From the NCBI GenBank assembly GCA_964581895.1, contig CAZOPR010000002.1, forward strand, positions 254,185-318,184: a stretch of 64,000 bases of DNA, read 5' to 3'. The notes under the pieces were generated by a model. It saw nothing but the letters and a program-made list of their open reading frames with translations. It did no database searches and was not told the DNA's origin. The stretch comes from an uncultured Brachyspira sp. (GTDB lineage Bacteria; Spirochaetota; JAAYUW01). Shown one piece after another: positions 1-64,000 of this stretch (position 1 is its first letter; each line of letters begins with the position of its first letter). Both the position numbers and the translations under genes were made by a program.

Positions 1-1115
1 CCACTTTTTTACCTCTATTGTTTTTGTTTTTTACGATTTATATAAATATTTCGCATATTAAAGATGTAAAAATTTTATCTGAAAATCATTTGCAAATTAT
101 TTTTGGTGAATTTTCTGATATTATAATTAATAGAACAAAATCTGACCTTCCTGCTTTTTTTAAGCAATTGAATATATTTTACAAAAAATATCCTGCTTTA
201 TTTAACTATTATTCATCGGCAGATACACTTATTATGTATATAACATTTGTTTCAAGTATGATATCTTCAATAATCTATATTATTACTTTCATTAATTTTA
301 ATACTATATCTATCATAAACCCTATTCAAAGATTAGTTGCAAATATGGAAAAAACAGCCAACCATGATTTTTCAGCTTTTACATATGTTGAATCAACAGA
401 TGAGATAGGTCAGATGGTCGTTAGTTTTAATAAGATGCTTATTGGATTAAATGAAAAAGAGAAAATAAAAGATCTATTTGGTCAATATTTAACTAAAGAG
501 ATATCTGATAAAATACTTACAAATCAGATTAATGTAAATGGAGAATTTTTTGATTCTACTATATTATTTTCTGATATAAGAGATTTTACTAAACTTACAC
601 AGGATATTTCTCCAGTCGAAGTTATCTCTTTTTTAAATGAATATTTTAATGAGATGATTGAAGTTGCAGTCAAATACGATGGGATCATAGATAAATTTAT
701 AGGTGATGGTATGTTGGTTGTTTTTGGTATACCATTTCAAACAAATGATCATGCTACAAAAGCCTTGCTATCATCTATTGAAATGCAAAAAGCCTTATTT
801 AAGATCAATCAGAAAAGACAAAGTGAGGGTAAAATTCCTATTAGAATAGGCATAGGGCTTCACTCTGGAACGGTGTTAGCTGGAAATATTGGGAATAAAA
901 GGAAATTGCAGTACACAGTTATTGGAGATACTGTAAATGTAGCTTCAAGAATAGAAAATTTAAATAAGCAGTTTTCAACTTCGATTTTGCTAAGTGAAGA
1001 TACCTATAAAAGATTGGATATAAATCTATTTAGTAAAGAAAATTTTTGTTTTCATGAAAATGTTGAAATAAGAGGTAAAAAAGAAAAACTCAACTTATAT
1101 TCATATCAATCGTAA
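1..1115 (+). CDS. Class III adenylate/guanylate cyclase with N-terminal membrane/sensor and HAMP-like region; 5' partial (frame open to window start, listed start 18 is a TTG)
   Basis: Cyclase homology-domain motifs FSDIRDFTKL, IGDGMLVVFG, GLHSGTVLAGNIG, GDTVNVASR; hydrophobic segment upstream; no stop between position 3 and 18 in frame. Confidence 0.75.
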   Translation, partial: TFLPLLFLFFTIYINISHIKDVKILSENHLQIIFGEFSDIIINRTKSDLPAFFKQLNIFYKKYPALFNYYSSADTLIMYITFVSSMISSIIYIITFINFNTISIINPIQRLVANMEKTANHDFSAFTYVESTDEIGQMVVSFNKMLIGLNEKEKIKDLFGQYLTKEISDKILTNQINVNGEFFDSTILFSDIRDFTKLTQDISPVEVISFLNEYFNEMIEVAVKYDGIIDKFIGDGMLVVFGIPFQTNDHATKALLSSIEMQKALFKINQKRQSEGKIPIRIGIGLHSGTVLAGNIGNKRKLQYTVIGDTVNVASRIENLNKQFSTSILLSEDTYKRLDINLFSKENFCFHENVEIRGKKEKLNLYSYQS

Positions 1116-53267: not shown

Positions 53268-55097
53268 TCACTCTTGCTCTTCATCTATTTCAAGTTTTAA
53301 TCCAGAAAGATCGGTTTTTTCAAGTCTATAGATAAAAGCCTTGATAAAGTAATAAGCCTTTGTAAAAATATATATTATTGGCTTACCATTAAGTTTCTTT
53401 ACCCCATGAAGTTTTTCATCTATAAATAATTTTTCATCTGGATTGTCAATAATATGAAACTTTTTATCTGTATAATCTTTTATTACTTTCATAGTTAGAA
53501 TAAGAAATGATTGTAATATTTCTATAAGTTTATTTCTTATGGAAACTGAAAGTTTTATCAACTCTTCCTTATCGGTTTTAAAAGTTTCATCATAGAAAGT
53601 TTGTTCAGCTTTTATTTTTGTTTTTAAGGATAACTCAGCATAAGATTCAAAATCTTGATATAAAAGATTGAGAGAGTTTAAGACATTGTTTAAGTCCGAT
53701 TTGACATCTATTTTTTTATGCTCTTCATAATCAATTTTATATCCAACTTCTTTTAATGTCATAAAAGTTGTATATTGTTCATTTAGTTCTTTATAAAAAA
53801 TATAAGTTAAAGTCATTTTGTCGTTGACATTAAGTCTTTGTAGTATTCCATCACTTTGAATTATATCCTCTTTGAATTTATTAAAGGCATTTTGAATTTC
53901 ATCCATAAATTCAAAACCTTTTTTTACATCATCTGGTATTTTTGCTACCTCTTTATTCTCTATATCCTGTTCAATCATTTCCTTTTTGTCTTTATTCTTT
54001 TTCATCATTTCAGCTAATGCTTTTTCTTCCTCATTTTTCTCCTTTTGAAAATAGTAACCTATTGAATCAGTCTTATCAAGATTAAGATATTCTTTAATAT
54101 GAGGAGAATTAAAAGAGATATATTTACCAATATTTCTGCAAAAAAGTATATGAAATTTTTCATAAGCAGTTGTTATTAAAAAGGAAATATCATTAATAAG
54201 CTCCTGCTCTGGAATATTAAGCCTATAATATTGCAAATAAATATTTCTTGCGGTTAAAAGTGAAATTTCAAAAACACCTGAATGTTCCTTTATAAAAAGA
54301 AGTTTTTTAAAATAAAAGGAAAATTTTTCAAATTCAGTCTCATCTAATATTGCAGAAAAATTTTCAAAGGATTTTTCATAAAAATTAGAAAGATAATCAT
54401 CATCAGCAAGATTTAAAAATTGATGAAGAATGTCATAGTGCAAAGGGGACAATTTACCTAAAGTATCTCTTATTTTTTTCTTTATGATAGGATTATTAAA
54501 GCAACCTCTAATAAAATAACCAAGTTTTGATATTAAAGAAGCAAAGTGAGGGAAAAAATTCACTAAAAAGTCCTGATGAAGTTTAGAAATCTTGAAAGAC
54601 AAAACCTTGAAAAAGTATCCATTAAAAATAAAAAGAATTCTATCTGTTATAGAAAGAGACAAAATTCTAATATTTTTTGAATTATCTTTAATTTCTTCAT
54701 TTTGACTTTTCTCAATTATTTTTTCTTTTTTTTCAAATCTAGATTCACTTGATTTATTTAATTGATCAACCTTTTGGATTATTTTTTTTTCAGTATCTAG
54801 TTTTTTTTCAATTTTTTTAAAATTTTTAAATGATTCTTCTTTATTTTTATAATAACTTGGACTTTCTACTCTTTTTCTTTTTCTTTGACCTTCAATAATA
54901 TCTGAATTTACATTACTTTGATTGTTTCTTTGAAAAATACCATAACTTGTTTTAGAATTTTTATCTAAAAGAGAAAAATCTACTTTCCCACCTGCTTTTT
55001 TAAGTTTTTCAAGCATCTCTTTTCTTGCTTTTTCATCAAGTTGATCCACCCCAAGTCTCTGTCTCAAATCGTGGTACTTATCATTTTTATAAGACAT
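53268..55097 (-). CDS. Hypothetical protein, Lys/Glu-rich N-terminus, downstream of cmk
   Basis: 609-aa ORF, ATG start 5 nt after cmk stop; no recognised motif. Confidence 0.3.
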   Translation of the reverse strand: MSYKNDKYHDLRQRLGVDQLDEKARKEMLEKLKKAGGKVDFSLLDKNSKTSYGIFQRNNQSNVNSDIIEGQRKRKRVESPSYYKNKEESFKNFKKIEKKLDTEKKIIQKVDQLNKSSESRFEKKEKIIEKSQNEEIKDNSKNIRILSLSITDRILFIFNGYFFKVLSFKISKLHQDFLVNFFPHFASLISKLGYFIRGCFNNPIIKKKIRDTLGKLSPLHYDILHQFLNLADDDYLSNFYEKSFENFSAILDETEFEKFSFYFKKLLFIKEHSGVFEISLLTARNIYLQYYRLNIPEQELINDISFLITTAYEKFHILFCRNIGKYISFNSPHIKEYLNLDKTDSIGYYFQKEKNEEEKALAEMMKKNKDKKEMIEQDIENKEVAKIPDDVKKGFEFMDEIQNAFNKFKEDIIQSDGILQRLNVNDKMTLTYIFYKELNEQYTTFMTLKEVGYKIDYEEHKKIDVKSDLNNVLNSLNLLYQDFESYAELSLKTKIKAEQTFYDETFKTDKEELIKLSVSIRNKLIEILQSFLILTMKVIKDYTDKKFHIIDNPDEKLFIDEKLHGVKKLNGKPIIYIFTKAYYFIKAFIYRLEKTDLSGLKLEIDEEQE

Positions 55098-57876: not shown

Positions 57877-57955
57877 AAATATTTAATCCTGATATTTAAT
57901 TTTAATATTTAATTCAAACATTTAATTCAAATATTTAAATCTAATATCTAACCTT
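57877..57955. repeat. Phased degenerate ~13-bp repeats (atatttaattc-like) in the scpA upstream region
   Basis: aaatatttaatcc / tgatatttaatt / ttaatatttaattc / aaacatttaattc / aaatatttaaatc. Confidence 0.6.
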
Positions 57956-60860
57956 AATTAATAAAAGATTCTATAAGCATTTGTAAAAGTTTTCTATAAG
58001 TATAAGGCTTACCTATTATAGTTTTATTTTTTGAAATAATAGCGTTATCTTCATCAAAGATGATGTGAGGAATTGCTTCGAATTTATCACTTGACTTTTG
58101 AAAGTTATTTTTATCTATAATCAAAAATGAGATTTCCTTTTCAAAATCTAATGATTTCGGGAAATTAAAATCTAAAAGATTTAAACTCAATCTTTTATTT
58201 TTGTCAAAGTCAAATATATTAAATTTAATTTTAATATAATTAAGGAAGGAAACTATTTTTTCTTTTAATAATTTATCCTCTAAATAAATCGAGATATTCA
58301 TTTTTTCCTTATCTTTAAGATTATTAAGTTTCATAAATTTATCAAGGTATTTTAATATTTCCTTATCTATCTGGCTTGGCAAATTATCTTTGTTTAATAA
58401 AGAACTATTTTTATATGGGATTTCAAAATTGAAAATTGTCCCAAAACCTTTACTACTTTTAACTGTTATTCTTCCTTCAAGAAGTTCCACAAGGTTTTTT
58501 GCTATAGAAAGTCCAAGACCAGTTCCTCCATATTTTTGGTAAATCTCTTTATTTGCTTGCTTAAAAGGTTTAAAAATATTAGGGATATCATTTTCAGAAA
58601 TCCCAATTCCACTATCTTCAACTTGAAATATCAATTGTTTTTCATTTTTATCATTTGAATAATACTTAGAAATAAATAGTTTTATAAAACCTTTTGAAGT
58701 AAATTTCAAAGAATTACTTATTAGATTCATAGTAATTTGCTTTATCTTTATCTCATCAGAAACAAAAATATCTTCCACATTAGAATCTACAATCGAAGAA
58801 AAATTTAATCCTTTTTCTTTAGCTAATAGATAATAATATTCTTCGATTTCATCTGCAAAATTTCTTATTGAAAAAGGTTTTAATATTAATTCTATGCTAT
58901 TTGATTCAATTCTATAAAAATCAAGGATGTGATTTACTAACTCCAGGGTCTGTTCTGAGTTTTTCTTAAGAGTTAATGCGATTGACTCCAAAGGTTTGTC
59001 TTTTAATTTTTCAGTCAATAATGAAGATATCCCAGTAGAAGCAGTTAACATATTTTTTAGCTCATGACCTAAAAATGCAAGAAAGTTTGATTTATCTTCA
59101 TTTGCTTCGGTTGCTGATTTTTCGGCTTTTTCAATTTCTTTTATATTTTTCAAAAGTTGATTTTCAAGATTCTTTTGACTTGAAATATCTAAAACTATAA
59201 CTATTAATTTATTTTCAAACTTTTTACCATAGAAAGATAAAACTTTGCTTTCACCGCTTTTATATTTCAATTGGATTATATTTTTAGCAAAATTATTTTT
59301 CTTAAGCCTTAGATAAAATCTTTTCATTTTTCTTTGAGAATTTTTATCAAAATAGGATAGGAATAAATCTCTTGTCATTTTTTTATTAATTGGGATATCG
59401 ATCAAGTTTTTAATATATTTTGAAAAAGTAACTTGACCGCTAAAAAGATCTTCTGTCCAGAAAGATAGATCTATTGTTTGTTGGATTAATTCAAGATTAT
59501 TTGAATATTCCTTTATCTTTGATTCCTCATTGATTTTATCAATCAAATCATATAAAAAGTAAGAAAAGATGGAAAGTGTTTTCTTCTGGTTTTTAGATAA
59601 ACCAAAGTATTTTACATAATCCAGAACATCTTGATTGAAATAATCAAATATATCTTCCTTTTCATTTATTAAAAGAAGAACTGCCTTAGTCTCTTTCTTA
59701 TGGATTACAGGGAAAATTATTATTTCATAATTGGAATCAATAGAAGAAATATCATTAAAAAATATATCTATTATTTTTTCATCTTTTTTATTTATTGTTA
59801 AATATTTTTCTTTGATAAATTTTTCTTTTATTTCGTAATCTATATCTTTTAATTTTATTTTATCTTTGAAGATCTTATTTCTTTTTATAGTTGAATAATA
59901 TGAAATTAAGATAATTTTATTTTTGTTTTCAAAATCCTTGAAATAAAAGGCTATTGAAATCAGATTTAGGTTTTCACAGATTGATTTTAATGAACTTTTT
60001 AAGGTTTTTTCAATGGAAAATGTCTCTAAAAGATTGTACATCGATTCTTCAATAGATTTTGAAAGATAGAGGTTGGATTTTTGTTCTAAAATTTTTAGAT
60101 GATTGGAAGTTATATCTTTTGAAATTCCAATTATACCAATAGTTTTACCGGAATCAGATAGAATCGGACTTTTTATTGTATTAAAGCATAATATATCATC
60201 TTTAAAATTATTTTTTGGATTTTTAAATTTTTTCCAATGTACCTCTGATATTGTTAGATTCTGAGCAAGAACATATTGATCACTTTTAATGTAATCTTTT
60301 GCCTCCTTTGGTTCAAATATGTCAAAATCTGTTTTATTGACTATATCTTCTTTTGAAATACCGAATAGATTTTCAAAATGCTTATTTATTATTATGTACT
60401 TTTTATTTTGATCTTTTATAAAAATAGGGTCAGTTATTAAGTTCAATAATGAGTAAAAATAATTGGTATGAATATCAAAAATATCTATCAGTTCATTGAT
60501 TTCCCCATAACTTCTTAAAAAAACCAGGATATAATCAATATTATTTTCTTTATCATTAATATAATGCATTTCTATTTGAAATTCCTTAGTATAATTTGAT
60601 TTTGAATATAACAATTTGGTTTTTACTTTGCTTGTATAATATTTTACTTCTTTAAGAGTTTTAATCGCTTTTTTGATCTCTTCTTCTTTTTCAAAGATAT
60701 TAAAAAAGTATTCTAGATTATTTAAATTTTTTGCAAAAGTATTTTTTGCAGTACTATTCATTAAAAATATCTGCCCTTCTAATGAAAGAATAATTATACC
60801 ATATGGAGCTTTATTAAAAAAGGGGGTATTAGAAATCTTAAAATAAAGATTTTTATCCAT
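57954..60860 (-). CDS. Multi-domain sensor histidine kinase (PAS-like regions, HisKA, HATPase_c, C-terminal receiver-like tail)
   Basis: H-box LAFLGHELKNMLTA, G-box GGTGLGLSIAKNL; no obvious TM segments. Confidence 0.8.
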   Translation of the reverse strand: MDKNLYFKISNTPFFNKAPYGIIILSLEGQIFLMNSTAKNTFAKNLNNLEYFFNIFEKEEEIKKAIKTLKEVKYYTSKVKTKLLYSKSNYTKEFQIEMHYINDKENNIDYILVFLRSYGEINELIDIFDIHTNYFYSLLNLITDPIFIKDQNKKYIIINKHFENLFGISKEDIVNKTDFDIFEPKEAKDYIKSDQYVLAQNLTISEVHWKKFKNPKNNFKDDILCFNTIKSPILSDSGKTIGIIGISKDITSNHLKILEQKSNLYLSKSIEESMYNLLETFSIEKTLKSSLKSICENLNLISIAFYFKDFENKNKIILISYYSTIKRNKIFKDKIKLKDIDYEIKEKFIKEKYLTINKKDEKIIDIFFNDISSIDSNYEIIIFPVIHKKETKAVLLLINEKEDIFDYFNQDVLDYVKYFGLSKNQKKTLSIFSYFLYDLIDKINEESKIKEYSNNLELIQQTIDLSFWTEDLFSGQVTFSKYIKNLIDIPINKKMTRDLFLSYFDKNSQRKMKRFYLRLKKNNFAKNIIQLKYKSGESKVLSFYGKKFENKLIVIVLDISSQKNLENQLLKNIKEIEKAEKSATEANEDKSNFLAFLGHELKNMLTASTGISSLLTEKLKDKPLESIALTLKKNSEQTLELVNHILDFYRIESNSIELILKPFSIRNFADEIEEYYYLLAKEKGLNFSSIVDSNVEDIFVSDEIKIKQITMNLISNSLKFTSKGFIKLFISKYYSNDKNEKQLIFQVEDSGIGISENDIPNIFKPFKQANKEIYQKYGGTGLGLSIAKNLVELLEGRITVKSSKGFGTIFNFEIPYKNSSLLNKDNLPSQIDKEILKYLDKFMKLNNLKDKEKMNISIYLEDKLLKEKIVSFLNYIKIKFNIFDFDKNKRLSLNLLDFNFPKSLDFEKEISFLIIDKNNFQKSSDKFEAIPHIIFDEDNAIISKNKTIIGKPYTYRKLLQMLIESFIN

Positions 60861-61022
60861 AAACTTTTATGCTCTTGTTTAATAATATTATAATGCATAA
60901 ATTTAAATATGAAAAGTCAGATTTTTAATTTTATTTTTTTGTGCTATAATAAATTCAAGACATAAATTTAAAGTATATTTTATTTAATTAAAATTAAATT
61001 TATCGAAAAATAAGAGGTTTTT

Positions 61023-63188
61023 GTGCAAAAGATACAAAGTCTAACTGAGTTAGATGGAGTTATAACATCATTACCAAGAGGTGGTTATTTAGTTAACACT
61101 TCTGTTGGATATATACAATTTGGTTCGCCTCCTGAGACATTAAAAGATACAATATTTTTACCTTTAGGTGTCCCAAAAATATTTATTTTACCTATGGAGC
61201 ATTTTGATCCAAAACAAGGAATGAGTGTTGCAGAGATAGAATTCCCAATATATTATAACTTTTTCTTAAAAAAATCTAAAACAAAGATTTATGTAAGCAG
61301 TGACCATATTAAAAACATGGAAATTGTTTTGAATGAAGCTGTTTTTGGACCGAAAGATGTAGATGTAAAAGATGAAGTAGTGATGACTGAAAATGCTTAT
61401 GTTCCAGACTTAAAATCCGAGATGGAATTTTTTAGAAACAATAGATCACTTGAAGACATGGTTGAACTTTTACCTTTGGAACAGACAATAGAGATCCAAA
61501 ATGTTGCTATAAAAAGAATTGATGATGGCTCATTTGAAGTATTTGATAATGGCAAACATCTTGTAAATGTTCCAGCTAAAATAAAATTTTCTGCAATTTA
61601 CGATTTAGGTGCGGTATTAAAAGAGCCATTTCATCCCCCTATTTTCGGTATAACCTGTCTTGGCCCTTCTCATGGCTTCGACCCTTACCAAAACACATCT
61701 GGATTTATTATATGGATAAATAAAGGTGGTATAATGGTAGATCCGCCAGCAAATTCTACTTTATGGCTTAAAGACTCAAATGTAAATCCAAAACTTATAG
61801 ATTCGGTTATATTGACTCATTGCCATGCTGACCATGATTCTGGTACATTTCAAAAGATATTGGAAGAAACAAGGATTACCATATATACAACACCTACTAT
61901 CATGGCAAGTTTTATTAGAAAATACTCTGCTCTTACCAGAATTTCTCCAAATAAGCTTAAAGAGATGTTTAATTTTTTCCCAGTTAAGATGAATCAGCAA
62001 TATAACATTAATGGGGCAATATTCTCTTTTTTCTATACACTTCATTCAATTCCAACAATAGGATTTCAATTTAATTATCGAAATAAAACTTTCATTTATT
62101 CTTCAGATCACTTAAATGAACCTAATATAATAAAAGGATTATATGAAAAAGGTATAATCAATGAAAAAAGATATAAAACTCTTGTAAATTTTCCTTGGGA
62201 TAAAGATATAATATATCATGAAGCTGGAATACCACCTTTACATACACCGATAAGTTATCTAAATTCTCTTCCGGTTGAGATTCAAAAGAAAATAACAGTG
62301 TATCATATTGCTGAGAAAGATTTTCCAAAAGAGACTCATTTAAAATTGGCAAAGTTTGGGATAGGAGAAACTTTTTATCCAGATATTGAAAAGCATAAGT
62401 TTGAAGAAGCATATCAGATACTTGATGTATTTAGCAGGATAGATATTTTTAAAGATTTACCATTTGAGAGGGTTAAAGATTTATTATTAATCGTTAAAAA
62501 GGTAAATTTCAAAAAAGGGGATTGTATAATCAAAAAAAATAGTGACCCAGACTATTTTTATGTTATAGTGTCAGGCAATGTCTCAATTTCTGGATTAAAG
62601 GATAACAATATCAAGGATAAGATCTATACTACATTTGAATATTTTGGAGAAGCTGCAATATTGAATAATGAAAAAAGAAAAGCAGATGTTGTCGCTCTAA
62701 ATTCAGTTGAAGCCTATGCTATAGATAAAACTTCCTTTTTAAAACTTATCCAGGACACACCAATTGAAATAAAAATGCGACAAGTTGCCAAAGTTAGAGA
62801 TGAACTATCCTGGAAAGTCATAAAAGCGAATGAGTTTTTCAAAGATCTTTCCTCTTCTCAGATAACTCAGATTGAAGGGATGAGCAAGATAAAAGAGATA
62901 AAAAAAGGGCAAATTATTTTTTCAAAAAAAGAATATCAAAAAAGCATATATTTACTTATTGAAGGAGTTGTGAAAACCGAAGATGGTAGGATAATAGAAA
63001 ATATGGGAGATTTCATAGGTGCAATATGCAACTTATATGAAGATAAACCAATAGATACAGATTATATAGCTAAAACAAAGTTAAAAGTCTATGAAATTGC
63101 AGCTGAAAAAATCAAAGGATTTTTAATAGAAAATCCAGGCATAACAATGAATATACTTTTTTCCAAATCAGATAAATGTAACACTTAA
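61023..63188 (+). CDS. Metallo-beta-lactamase-fold hydrolase fused to two cNMP-binding domains (candidate cyclic-nucleotide phosphodiesterase)
   Basis: HxHxDH motif ILTHCHADHDSG; two CAP-family cNMP-binding segments (FGEAAILNNEKRKADVVA and a second degenerate copy); GTG start. Confidence 0.65.
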   Translation: MQKIQSLTELDGVITSLPRGGYLVNTSVGYIQFGSPPETLKDTIFLPLGVPKIFILPMEHFDPKQGMSVAEIEFPIYYNFFLKKSKTKIYVSSDHIKNMEIVLNEAVFGPKDVDVKDEVVMTENAYVPDLKSEMEFFRNNRSLEDMVELLPLEQTIEIQNVAIKRIDDGSFEVFDNGKHLVNVPAKIKFSAIYDLGAVLKEPFHPPIFGITCLGPSHGFDPYQNTSGFIIWINKGGIMVDPPANSTLWLKDSNVNPKLIDSVILTHCHADHDSGTFQKILEETRITIYTTPTIMASFIRKYSALTRISPNKLKEMFNFFPVKMNQQYNINGAIFSFFYTLHSIPTIGFQFNYRNKTFIYSSDHLNEPNIIKGLYEKGIINEKRYKTLVNFPWDKDIIYHEAGIPPLHTPISYLNSLPVEIQKKITVYHIAEKDFPKETHLKLAKFGIGETFYPDIEKHKFEEAYQILDVFSRIDIFKDLPFERVKDLLLIVKKVNFKKGDCIIKKNSDPDYFYVIVSGNVSISGLKDNNIKDKIYTTFEYFGEAAILNNEKRKADVVALNSVEAYAIDKTSFLKLIQDTPIEIKMRQVAKVRDELSWKVIKANEFFKDLSSSQITQIEGMSKIKEIKKGQIIFSKKEYQKSIYLLIEGVVKTEDGRIIENMGDFIGAICNLYEDKPIDTDYIAKTKLKVYEIAAEKIKGFLIENPGITMNILFSKSDKCNT

Positions 63189-64000
63189 ATAATTTGTCCA
63201 AACATTGCATCTATATTTACTTTACTTATCTTATTTCCCAGATCCTTTTCTATCAATAAGAATTTTTTAATTATTAAAAGTAAAATCATCCATTTATAAG
63301 TCGAAGCTCTTTTATTTTCATAAAAAACTCTATATAGTTTATTGTCATAATAAAATTCAAGAACTTCTTTATTTTGAACATTTATCCCTTCCATTTTAGA
63401 TATAGAAAATGAGTAAAGAAGTTTGTTTTCTTGCTTTGAATATATTTCAAAATATTCTTTTTTAAGTTTAATATAACCTTCCCCTAAGAATTTTGTTTTA
63501 TCATATCTATAACCTATATGTGCTTGTGCAATTTCAGGGTCTTGTAAAACTAGATGATCCTTTTCAATTTTTTTTGAAAATAAATCTTTAATAAGTTCAA
63601 ATGAATATTTAATCTGCCATCTATTCCACTTTGATACATTATTAAAATTGTTATCTATGTTTTCACCTTCAAACTGACCATATTCATTGTATTTTAAGTT
63701 TAAATTGCACTCTTGACATTTAACATAGTCGCCTTCGCTATAAATAGATAAAAGGCTTTTACAATTTGGGCAAATATACAATATCTGCTCTAAAAATTGA
63801 GCTAAATTTTCACCAACATACTTGTACTTAAATTTCTCTTCAAATTCATCATCTGAGTGTTTTAGCCATTTCGTAATTGCTTCATTTATCTGTTCAGAAG
63901 TCAAAGATAAGACTTCTTCCTTTTGTAATATTGTAGAAAACTCTATAGCTACTTTACCTTTTCTTTTCTTTTCAGCCCATCTTGGAAGAGAGAGATATGC
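63185..64000 (-). CDS. Zinc-ribbon protein, 5' partial (frame open to window end; listed start 63904 is TTG)
   Basis: CPNCKS...CQEC zinc-ribbon; no stop codon in frame from 63905 to 64000. Confidence 0.4.
   Translation of the reverse strand, partial: AYLSLPRWAEKKRKGKVAIEFSTILQKEEVLSLTSEQINEAITKWLKHSDDEFEEKFKYKYVGENLAQFLEQILYICPNCKSLLSIYSEGDYVKCQECNLNLKYNEYGQFEGENIDNNFNNVSKWNRWQIKYSFELIKDLFSKKIEKDHLVLQDPEIAQAHIGYRYDKTKFLGEGYIKLKKEYFEIYSKQENKLLYSFSISKMEGINVQNKEVLEFYYDNKLYRVFYENKRASTYKWMILLLIIKKFLLIEKDLGNKISKVNIDAMFGQII

Follow-up and report, generated by a model that had tools for sequence, protein, structure and literature searches.

A predicted cyclic-nucleotide-regulated metallo-beta-lactamase phosphodiesterase of the GbpA/PdeD type in a spirochaete genome

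We analysed a 64,000-nucleotide stretch of DNA (the window) from an uncultured Brachyspira sp. (contig CAZOPR010000002.1 of assembly GCA_964581895.1, positions 254,185 to 318,184). Near its end lies a gene for a 721-amino-acid (aa) protein, at 61023..63188 on the plus strand, exactly as a preliminary description of the sequence had reported. The protein has a catalytic domain of the metallo-beta-lactamase (MBL) fold, preceded by a domain of about 205 aa and followed by two cyclic-nucleotide-binding (CNB) domains, and it is a predicted phosphodiesterase (PDE) of the type known from Dictyostelium as GbpA/PdeD. We regard its start codon as sound because a Shine-Dalgarno sequence precedes it and because the N-terminus (MQKI...) is common to the homologues with which it aligns. 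The features of the gene are as follows.

61012..61017, plus strand: Shine-Dalgarno sequence AAGAGG, 5 nt 5' of the GTG, read from the sequence
61023..63188, plus strand: coding sequence of the predicted GbpA/PdeD-type, cyclic-nucleotide-regulated MBL phosphodiesterase, 721 aa, GTG start, stop codon included
61023..61637, plus strand: N-terminal putative pseudo-MBL domain (N-domain), aa 1-205, a predicted MBL fold without the metal-binding motif
61071..61148, plus strand: family signature of the N-domain, LPRGGY...QFGSPPETLKD, aa 17-42
61638..62387, plus strand: catalytic MBL domain, Apyc1-like, aa 206-455
61818..61835, plus strand: metal-binding motif H266-C-H268-A-D270-H271, conserved in 346-347 of 347 family members
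62403..62798, plus strand: CNB-A, a canonical CNB domain of the PKA-R/PKG type, aa 461-592
62643..62684, plus strand: phosphate-binding cassette of CNB-A, F541-G542-E543...R552-K-A554
62799..63179, plus strand: CNB-B, a confidently modelled CNB fold with a degenerate ligand site, aa 593-719
63006..63056, plus strand: degenerate cassette of CNB-B (GDFIGAICNLYEDKPID)

The HxHxDH motif on which the preliminary description had drawn lies within ILTHCHADHDSG (aa 263-274). All residue counts given here were taken over the same 347 family members, and further invariant candidates for metal ligands (D240, H341, D362, H399/E400, H407 and H428) are kept in 346-347 of them. The residues of a binuclear metal site, that is the motif together with distal His and Asp residues, are therefore all in place (H266, H268, D270, H271, H341, D362, H399, H407 and H428). 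Pfam Lactamase_B (28.2 bits; cut-off 22.7) and Lactamase_B_2 (28.4 bits; cut-off 27) both match at about aa 227-362. A fold search with the predicted model of the catalytic domain, which is Apyc1-like in three dimensions, returned the cyclic nucleotide monophosphate (cNMP) phosphodiesterase Apyc1 as the nearest solved structure, and PF23023 (Anti-Pycsar_Apyc1) is the precomputed Pfam assignment of an identical protein (P0001) and of all homologues at E<=1e-5.

Profiles of other MBL families did not claim the protein. RNase Z membership was rejected on scores of 33.7 bits for TIGR02651 (cut-off 292.95) and 33.1 bits for NF000801 (cut-off 252), as were glyoxalase II and lactonase assignments on NCBIfam scores far under their cut-offs; a glyoxalase II match (to 7l0b) was restricted to the motif region. 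PF02112 (PDEase_II) gave no match in the Pfam scan even at E<=10, excluding the classical class II PDEs, and the protein belongs instead to the 'IIb'/Apyc1-like branch. Classical class II enzymes (yeast PDE1, Vibrio CpdP, Dictyostelium PdsA) also differ in lacking CNB domains and a pseudo-MBL, and several are secreted or periplasmic. The earlier suggestion of an MBL-fold cyclic-nucleotide phosphodiesterase thus survives as a cNMP-gated MBL PDE, favoured by the Apyc1 likeness and by the Dictyostelium homology described next, without its class II label.

Two Dictyostelium discoideum proteins, GbpA (PdeD, DdPDE5) and GbpB (PdeE, DdPDE6), have the same order of modules over the whole chain. GbpA and GbpB are intracellular 'class IIb' MBL-type PDEs, activated by the binding of cGMP or cAMP to two downstream CNB domains, GbpA being a cGMP-stimulated cGMP phosphodiesterase; hydrolysis of cAMP/cGMP stimulated by cAMP/cGMP is known for the Dictyostelium proteins only (PMC11988041; PMC8684759). 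In BLASTP, the window protein aligned with a Dictyostelium cluster (P0301) at 36% identity over 612 aa (E 4e-128), from the end of the N-domain through the MBL domain to both CNBs, and its aa 11-110 aligned with the same cluster at 44% identity (E 2e-25). The dictyostelid proteins were reached with a Protostelium member as intermediate query. P0301 includes D. discoideum proteins labelled 'hypothetical protein', and its D. purpureum and Polysphondylium orthologues bear the UniRef name 3',5'-cyclic-GMP phosphodiesterase; from these names and the length we infer that P0301 is GbpA/PdeD. A 1096-aa sequence (P0185), suspected from its length to be Dictyostelium GbpB, was set aside as eukaryote-like and not obviously dictyostelid.

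The likeness extends from the N-domain signature (LPRGG...QFGxPPETxKD) through an MBL domain with HCHADHD to a CNB-A that is canonical and a CNB-B in which the cassette Arg is missing, and in the window protein Pfam and the model agree on an MBL domain followed by two CNBs in one chain. There are differences too: the Dictyostelium protein, at 865-871 aa, carries an insertion of ~135 aa inside the N-domain, whereas the window protein is compact, and the residue after the cassette Arg is Lys in the window protein and Ser in Dictyostelium. Because the homology to the Dictyostelium cluster is full-length, we place the window protein, on sequence grounds, in the GbpA/GbpB (PdeD/PdeE) family as a bacterial member. 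Its architecture and homology are far beyond chance: more than 2000 homologues have the same length and architecture, and a profile search collected 971 clusters (50% identity) at E<=1e-30.

The full-length enzyme occurs in Spirochaetota, in Planctomycetota, in deltaproteobacterial and Myxococcota-type lineages, and in many protists and algae. The closest relatives come from Exilispira metagenome-assembled genomes (MAGs), at 91-94% protein identity, and several relatives, among them a partial Exilispira protein with 93% identity, appear at NCBI under the name 'cAMP/cGMP-dependent 3',5'-cyclic-AMP/GMP phosphodiesterase'. Eukaryotic members, many of them long, are named after PdeD and come from Chlorokybus, Rhodelphis, Paulinella, Cyanophora, Phytophthora, Hondaea, Protostelium and others. 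Some carry the module within larger proteins. In Rhodelphis marinus (P0151, P0406) a class I PDE domain (PF00233) comes after the complete module, so that each chain has two unrelated PDE catalytic domains. In Chloropicon roscoffensis and relatives (P0171/P0275) the module (profile positions 7-712) sits inside proteins of ~1950-2113 aa named guanylate cyclase, fusions that may combine cNMP synthesis and degradation in one polypeptide. A full-length orthologue, 81% identical, was also found in a MAG labelled Brachyspira murdochii (L008, DYJT01000006.1); because this is closer than the orthologue in a MAG labelled Exilispira (L010, 71%), the taxonomic label of the former may be wrong.

The two C-terminal domains had been described as CAP-type. 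That there are two CNB domains is confirmed by Pfam and by the model, and their type proved closest to the PKA-R/PKG tandem rather than to CAP. Pfam cNMP_binding matches two stretches (92.9 bits, E 1.2e-26), the one in CNB-A at aa 494-578; CNB-B alone reaches 35.6 bits against a cut-off of 27.5. PKA-R and PKG are the best PDB matches both of CNB-A and of the C-terminal 260 aa, with PKA-R E-values down to 1.9e-23 and a Foldseek E of 5.6e-18 over ~258 columns; tandem-CNB matches also dominate the Foldseek search of the full model against the PDB, which is uninformative on the other domains. A transcription factor of the CRP/FNR (CAP-type) kind was rejected, as the Pfam scan contains no helix-turn-helix family and the CRP equivalog scores 35.3 bits against 266. 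In the model, the C-terminus is the second CNB fold, with no DNA-binding domain.

The phosphate-binding residues, which the preliminary description had made a test of its proposal, are present in CNB-A (Glu and Arg), and CNB-B lacks the Arg in all 347 members. CNB-A has the canonical Gly-Glu...Arg-x-Ala cassette, with the Gly conserved in 333, the Glu in 318, the Arg in 295 and the Ala in 296 of the 347 sequences. CNB-B does not have this cassette; it aligns as G662-D-F-I-G666-A667, and at its phosphate-binding position (675-678) no conserved Arg occurs in any family member, the Dictyostelium sequence included. Position 667 is Glu in 140 members and Asp in 133 (273/347 together), and two close relatives, P0004 (94% identical) and P0009 (90%), have Glu there. 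The Ala of the window protein (codon 63021-63023) looks like recent further decay of an already Arg-less site. Since the CNB-A cassette is canonical and CNB-B is Arg-less throughout the family, each chain probably has one canonical nucleotide site, in CNB-A. This sets the protein apart from PKA-R and PKG, where both CNB sites bind nucleotide, as the second site here has neither the Arg nor the Glu; the output regulated would also differ, being a hydrolase in the same chain and not a kinase.

The role of the N-terminal region, of roughly 200 aa, had been left open. The first ~205 aa match no family in the Pfam scan, and a search of the N-domain profile against PDB sequences gave no meaningful match. 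A fold search with the isolated N-domain model returned MBL folds only. A relic, ILPMEHFDPKQG, occupies aa 55-66, where HxHxDH would stand, and this position has no conserved His in the family alignment. In the predicted model the N-domain packs on the catalytic MBL domain as in long-form RNase Z: human ELAC2 (8cbl) aligns over 355 residues and yeast Trz1 (5mtz) over 363, against at most ~250 for single-domain MBL proteins. On the strength of these models we assign the N-terminal 205 aa as a dead second copy of the catalytic fold, a pseudo-MBL, which offers a testable role for a region that Pfam leaves blank.

Apyc1 and YhfI are stand-alone proteins of ~250 aa that form unregulated homodimers (PMC9117128). 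From these proteins (Apyc1: PDB 7u2r, 7u2s, 7t28, PF23023; YhfI-type: 1zkp, 6kns) the window protein differs by its fused pseudo-MBL and CNB tandem, and in the model the fused pseudo-MBL appears to replace the partner subunit of the homodimer. Whether the whole GbpA/PdeD family, bacterial and eukaryotic, is an obligate intramolecular pseudo-heterodimer, with a dead MBL fused to a live one as in ELAC2, is a tentative proposal to which we give somewhat less than even chances. The N-domain signature is nearly invariant from bacteria to Dictyostelium and algae (K41 in 336, E38 in 333 and Q32 in 332 of 347), and R19, Q32, PPET.KD and AE.EFP are conserved about as strongly as the catalytic site. Because of this conservation the N-domain may do more than scaffold, for instance by completing the substrate pocket across the pseudo-dimer interface or by receiving an allosteric signal from the CNB tandem. 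The GbpA/GbpB literature that we consulted does not describe the N-domain as a pseudo-MBL, and we found no description of a dead-MBL/live-MBL pseudo-heterodimer for any cyclic-nucleotide phosphodiesterase.

We consider it likely that the protein is a cAMP and/or cGMP PDE switched on by nucleotide binding to CNB-A, and hence that it performs substrate-stimulated cNMP clearance. It would be a cytoplasmic 3',5'-cyclic-nucleotide phosphodiesterase of the GbpA/GbpB (PdeD/PdeE, 'class IIb') type, whose binuclear-metal MBL domain would hydrolyse cAMP and/or cGMP to the 5'-monophosphate. The pseudo-MBL domain would buttress the catalytic domain, standing in for the second subunit of an Apyc1, YhfI or short RNase Z homodimer as in long-form RNase Z. 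Binding of a cyclic nucleotide to the CNB-A cassette (G542-E543...R552-x-A554) would activate, not inhibit, the enzyme. CNB-B, predicted to be unable to bind cyclic phosphate canonically, would probably serve as a structural or relay module. Beyond a threshold, degradation stimulated by its own substrate would then remove cNMP spikes abruptly. Of the two nucleotides cAMP is the more likely, since most class III cyclases of bacteria are adenylyl cyclases.

Several observations weigh against parts of this proposal. The MBL core resembles the solved structures of cNMP PDEs, Apyc1 included, weakly in sequence (E 6e-4 to 3e-3 in the profile search), and a local Pfam-A hmmscan of the window protein did not return PF23023 even at E<=10, a discrepancy with the precomputed lists that may reflect a version or library difference. 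The two MBL-like halves have no detectable sequence similarity (hhalign probability 0.2%); because no internal duplication was found at the sequence level, it is the fold that carries the pseudo-MBL assignment, and the apparent pseudo-dimer of pseudo-MBL and catalytic MBL is likewise a feature of the predicted structure. Behind the cassette Arg, cAMP sites typically have Ala and cGMP sites Thr; the window protein has Lys553 there, and as the family as a whole shows S, N, T, K or A, this position does not tell cAMP from cGMP as the ligand. The direction of regulation, activation, is transferred by analogy from Dictyostelium, and the searchable literature yielded no characterized (assayed) bacterial member.

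The same architecture could instead serve a cNMP-regulated MBL hydrolase with another substrate, such as RNA or tRNA 3' ends (RNase Z-like), 2',3'-cyclic nucleotides (PhnP-like) or cyclic dinucleotides, cAMP or cGMP acting only as allosteric ligands in a cross-talk between pathways. The layout of long-form RNase Z, with an inactive N-terminal MBL domain ahead of an active C-terminal one, is seen in the predicted model; the window protein differs from ELAC2 and Trz1 in lacking family membership at the sequence level and in its predicted substrate, and RNase Z has no CNB domains. We judge this alternative unlikely. That the protein is a non-catalytic cyclic-nucleotide receptor or scaffold whose MBL activity has been lost might be suggested by the degeneracy of one of its two MBL-like domains and one of its two CNB domains. 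However, all metal-ligand candidates of the second MBL domain are kept in 346-347 of the 347 members, across bacteria and eukaryotes, a pattern that marks a working enzyme maintained by purifying selection, and we give such a loss hardly any credence.

A further alternative is a host scavenger of cyclic pyrimidine (cCMP/cUMP) immune signals, Apyc1-like, that regulates or insulates a Pycsar-type anti-phage system. The Pfam name Anti-Pycsar_Apyc1 and the best structural match, Apyc1, would fit it, as would the matches of the CNB domain to CNB domains of Pycsar effectors in PADLOC, and the Apyc1 paper suggests that host homologues may regulate Pycsar or other cNMP signalling (PMC9117128). Yet these PADLOC matches are at the domain level only (23.8-37.5 bits), and neither the window nor any of six related loci has a Pycsar-like cyclase-effector pair beside the gene. 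In contrast to Apyc1, the window protein has no phage or defence context: its neighbours are chromosomal housekeeping genes, in an order common to an Exilispira MAG, and the family is a widespread chromosomal gene of uniform length (~720 aa) that reaches many eukaryotes. The close cellular relatives of Apyc1 (YhfI) moreover prefer cAMP/cGMP (PMC9117128). A role of this kind is very improbable, and we retain the substrate-stimulated cAMP and/or cGMP PDE as the preferred reading.

The family itself is already known and close relatives are annotated. To this the analysis adds that the N-domain is assigned as a pseudo-MBL in an ELAC2-like arrangement, that CNB-B is degenerate throughout the family, that the protein is linked directly to Dictyostelium and that a local pairing with a cyclase is not supported. 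Work on substrate-stimulated cNMP PDEs of the GbpA type has been confined to Dictyostelium, in which the cGMP transient of chemotaxis is shaped by GbpA, and the same full-length enzyme is now seen to be widespread in bacteria, protists and algae. If the pseudo-heterodimer proposal is true, the compact bacterial protein would be a convenient system for the mechanism of substrate-activated cNMP degradation. The cultured species of Exilispira is thermophilic, and a protein of 721 aa from this genus, free of low-complexity inserts, would be attractive for structural work and enzymology. As annotation its value is ordinary: a predicted cNMP PDE with one working cNMP sensor domain, indicating cAMP/cGMP signalling in Exilispira.

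Around the gene, and at the far end of the window, lie the following features.

18..1115, plus strand: class III cyclase with HAMP and Guanylate_cyc domains (Pfam 108.6 bits)
57954..60860, minus strand: PAS/HisKA/HATPase histidine kinase, 968 aa, divergent from the PDE gene, with 162 bp of AT-rich DNA between them
60942..60950, plus strand: tentative extended -10 element TGcTATAAT, 72 nt before the start codon
63185-64000, minus strand: acyltransferase (PF01553), partial, convergent with the PDE gene
L002:8787-10004, L003:4738-5982 and L006:4787-6004 (related loci): GAF-HD-GYP-type gene, sharing 4 nt with the start of the PDE gene or separated from it by 18 bp

The class III cyclase at the start of the window is genuine, and its true start, with a sensor or membrane part, is probably upstream of base 1. 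The preliminary description had raised the possibility that it and the PDE form a local pair for synthesis and degradation. This idea is not supported: 60 kb separate the cyclase from the PDE gene, and in six related loci none lies next to the PDE gene. The cyclase has no effector gene beside it, and its match to PADLOC PycC models (89 bits) is therefore read as similarity common to class III cyclases.

Three Brevinematales genomes, that of Thermospira aquatica among them, have a gene of ~405-414 aa with GAF and HD/HD_5 (HD-GYP-type) domains directly 5' of the PDE gene and in the same orientation, an arrangement that suggests an operon linking the cNMP PDE with a second nucleotide-signalling hydrolase. 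This partner is absent from the window and from three related loci (L001, L004, L005), and a tblastn search of the window for it, for further CNB domains or for further cyclases found none. The gene order of the window, including the pairing with the histidine kinase, is common to the Exilispira MAG (L001) and not to other lineages; in two further lineages the neighbours of the PDE gene are unrelated.

The candidate -10 element sits within the divergent intergenic region. A promoter scan gave no more sites than shuffled sequence, and a terminator scan found none. On the other side, the listed 239-aa open reading frame (ORF) is a fragment of the acyltransferase: aa 158-428 of its L001 counterpart align from base 64000 to 63188 at 82% identity (tblastn), so the gene extends past the window end, and its stop codon overlaps that of the PDE gene tail to tail. 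The G+C content of the window is 24-32% over its whole length, and two antisense ORFs within the PDE gene (61776-62045, minus strand, 89 aa; 62158-62412, minus strand, 84 aa) are taken to be chance ORFs in AT-rich DNA. In the histidine kinase, the first ~130 aa, aa ~255-585 and the last ~150 aa have no Pfam match. A 609-aa ORF at 53268-55097 (minus strand) matches nothing in Pfam or PADLOC, and a 613-aa counterpart, also without Pfam matches, stands at the corresponding place in the Exilispira MAG (L001:2372-4213).

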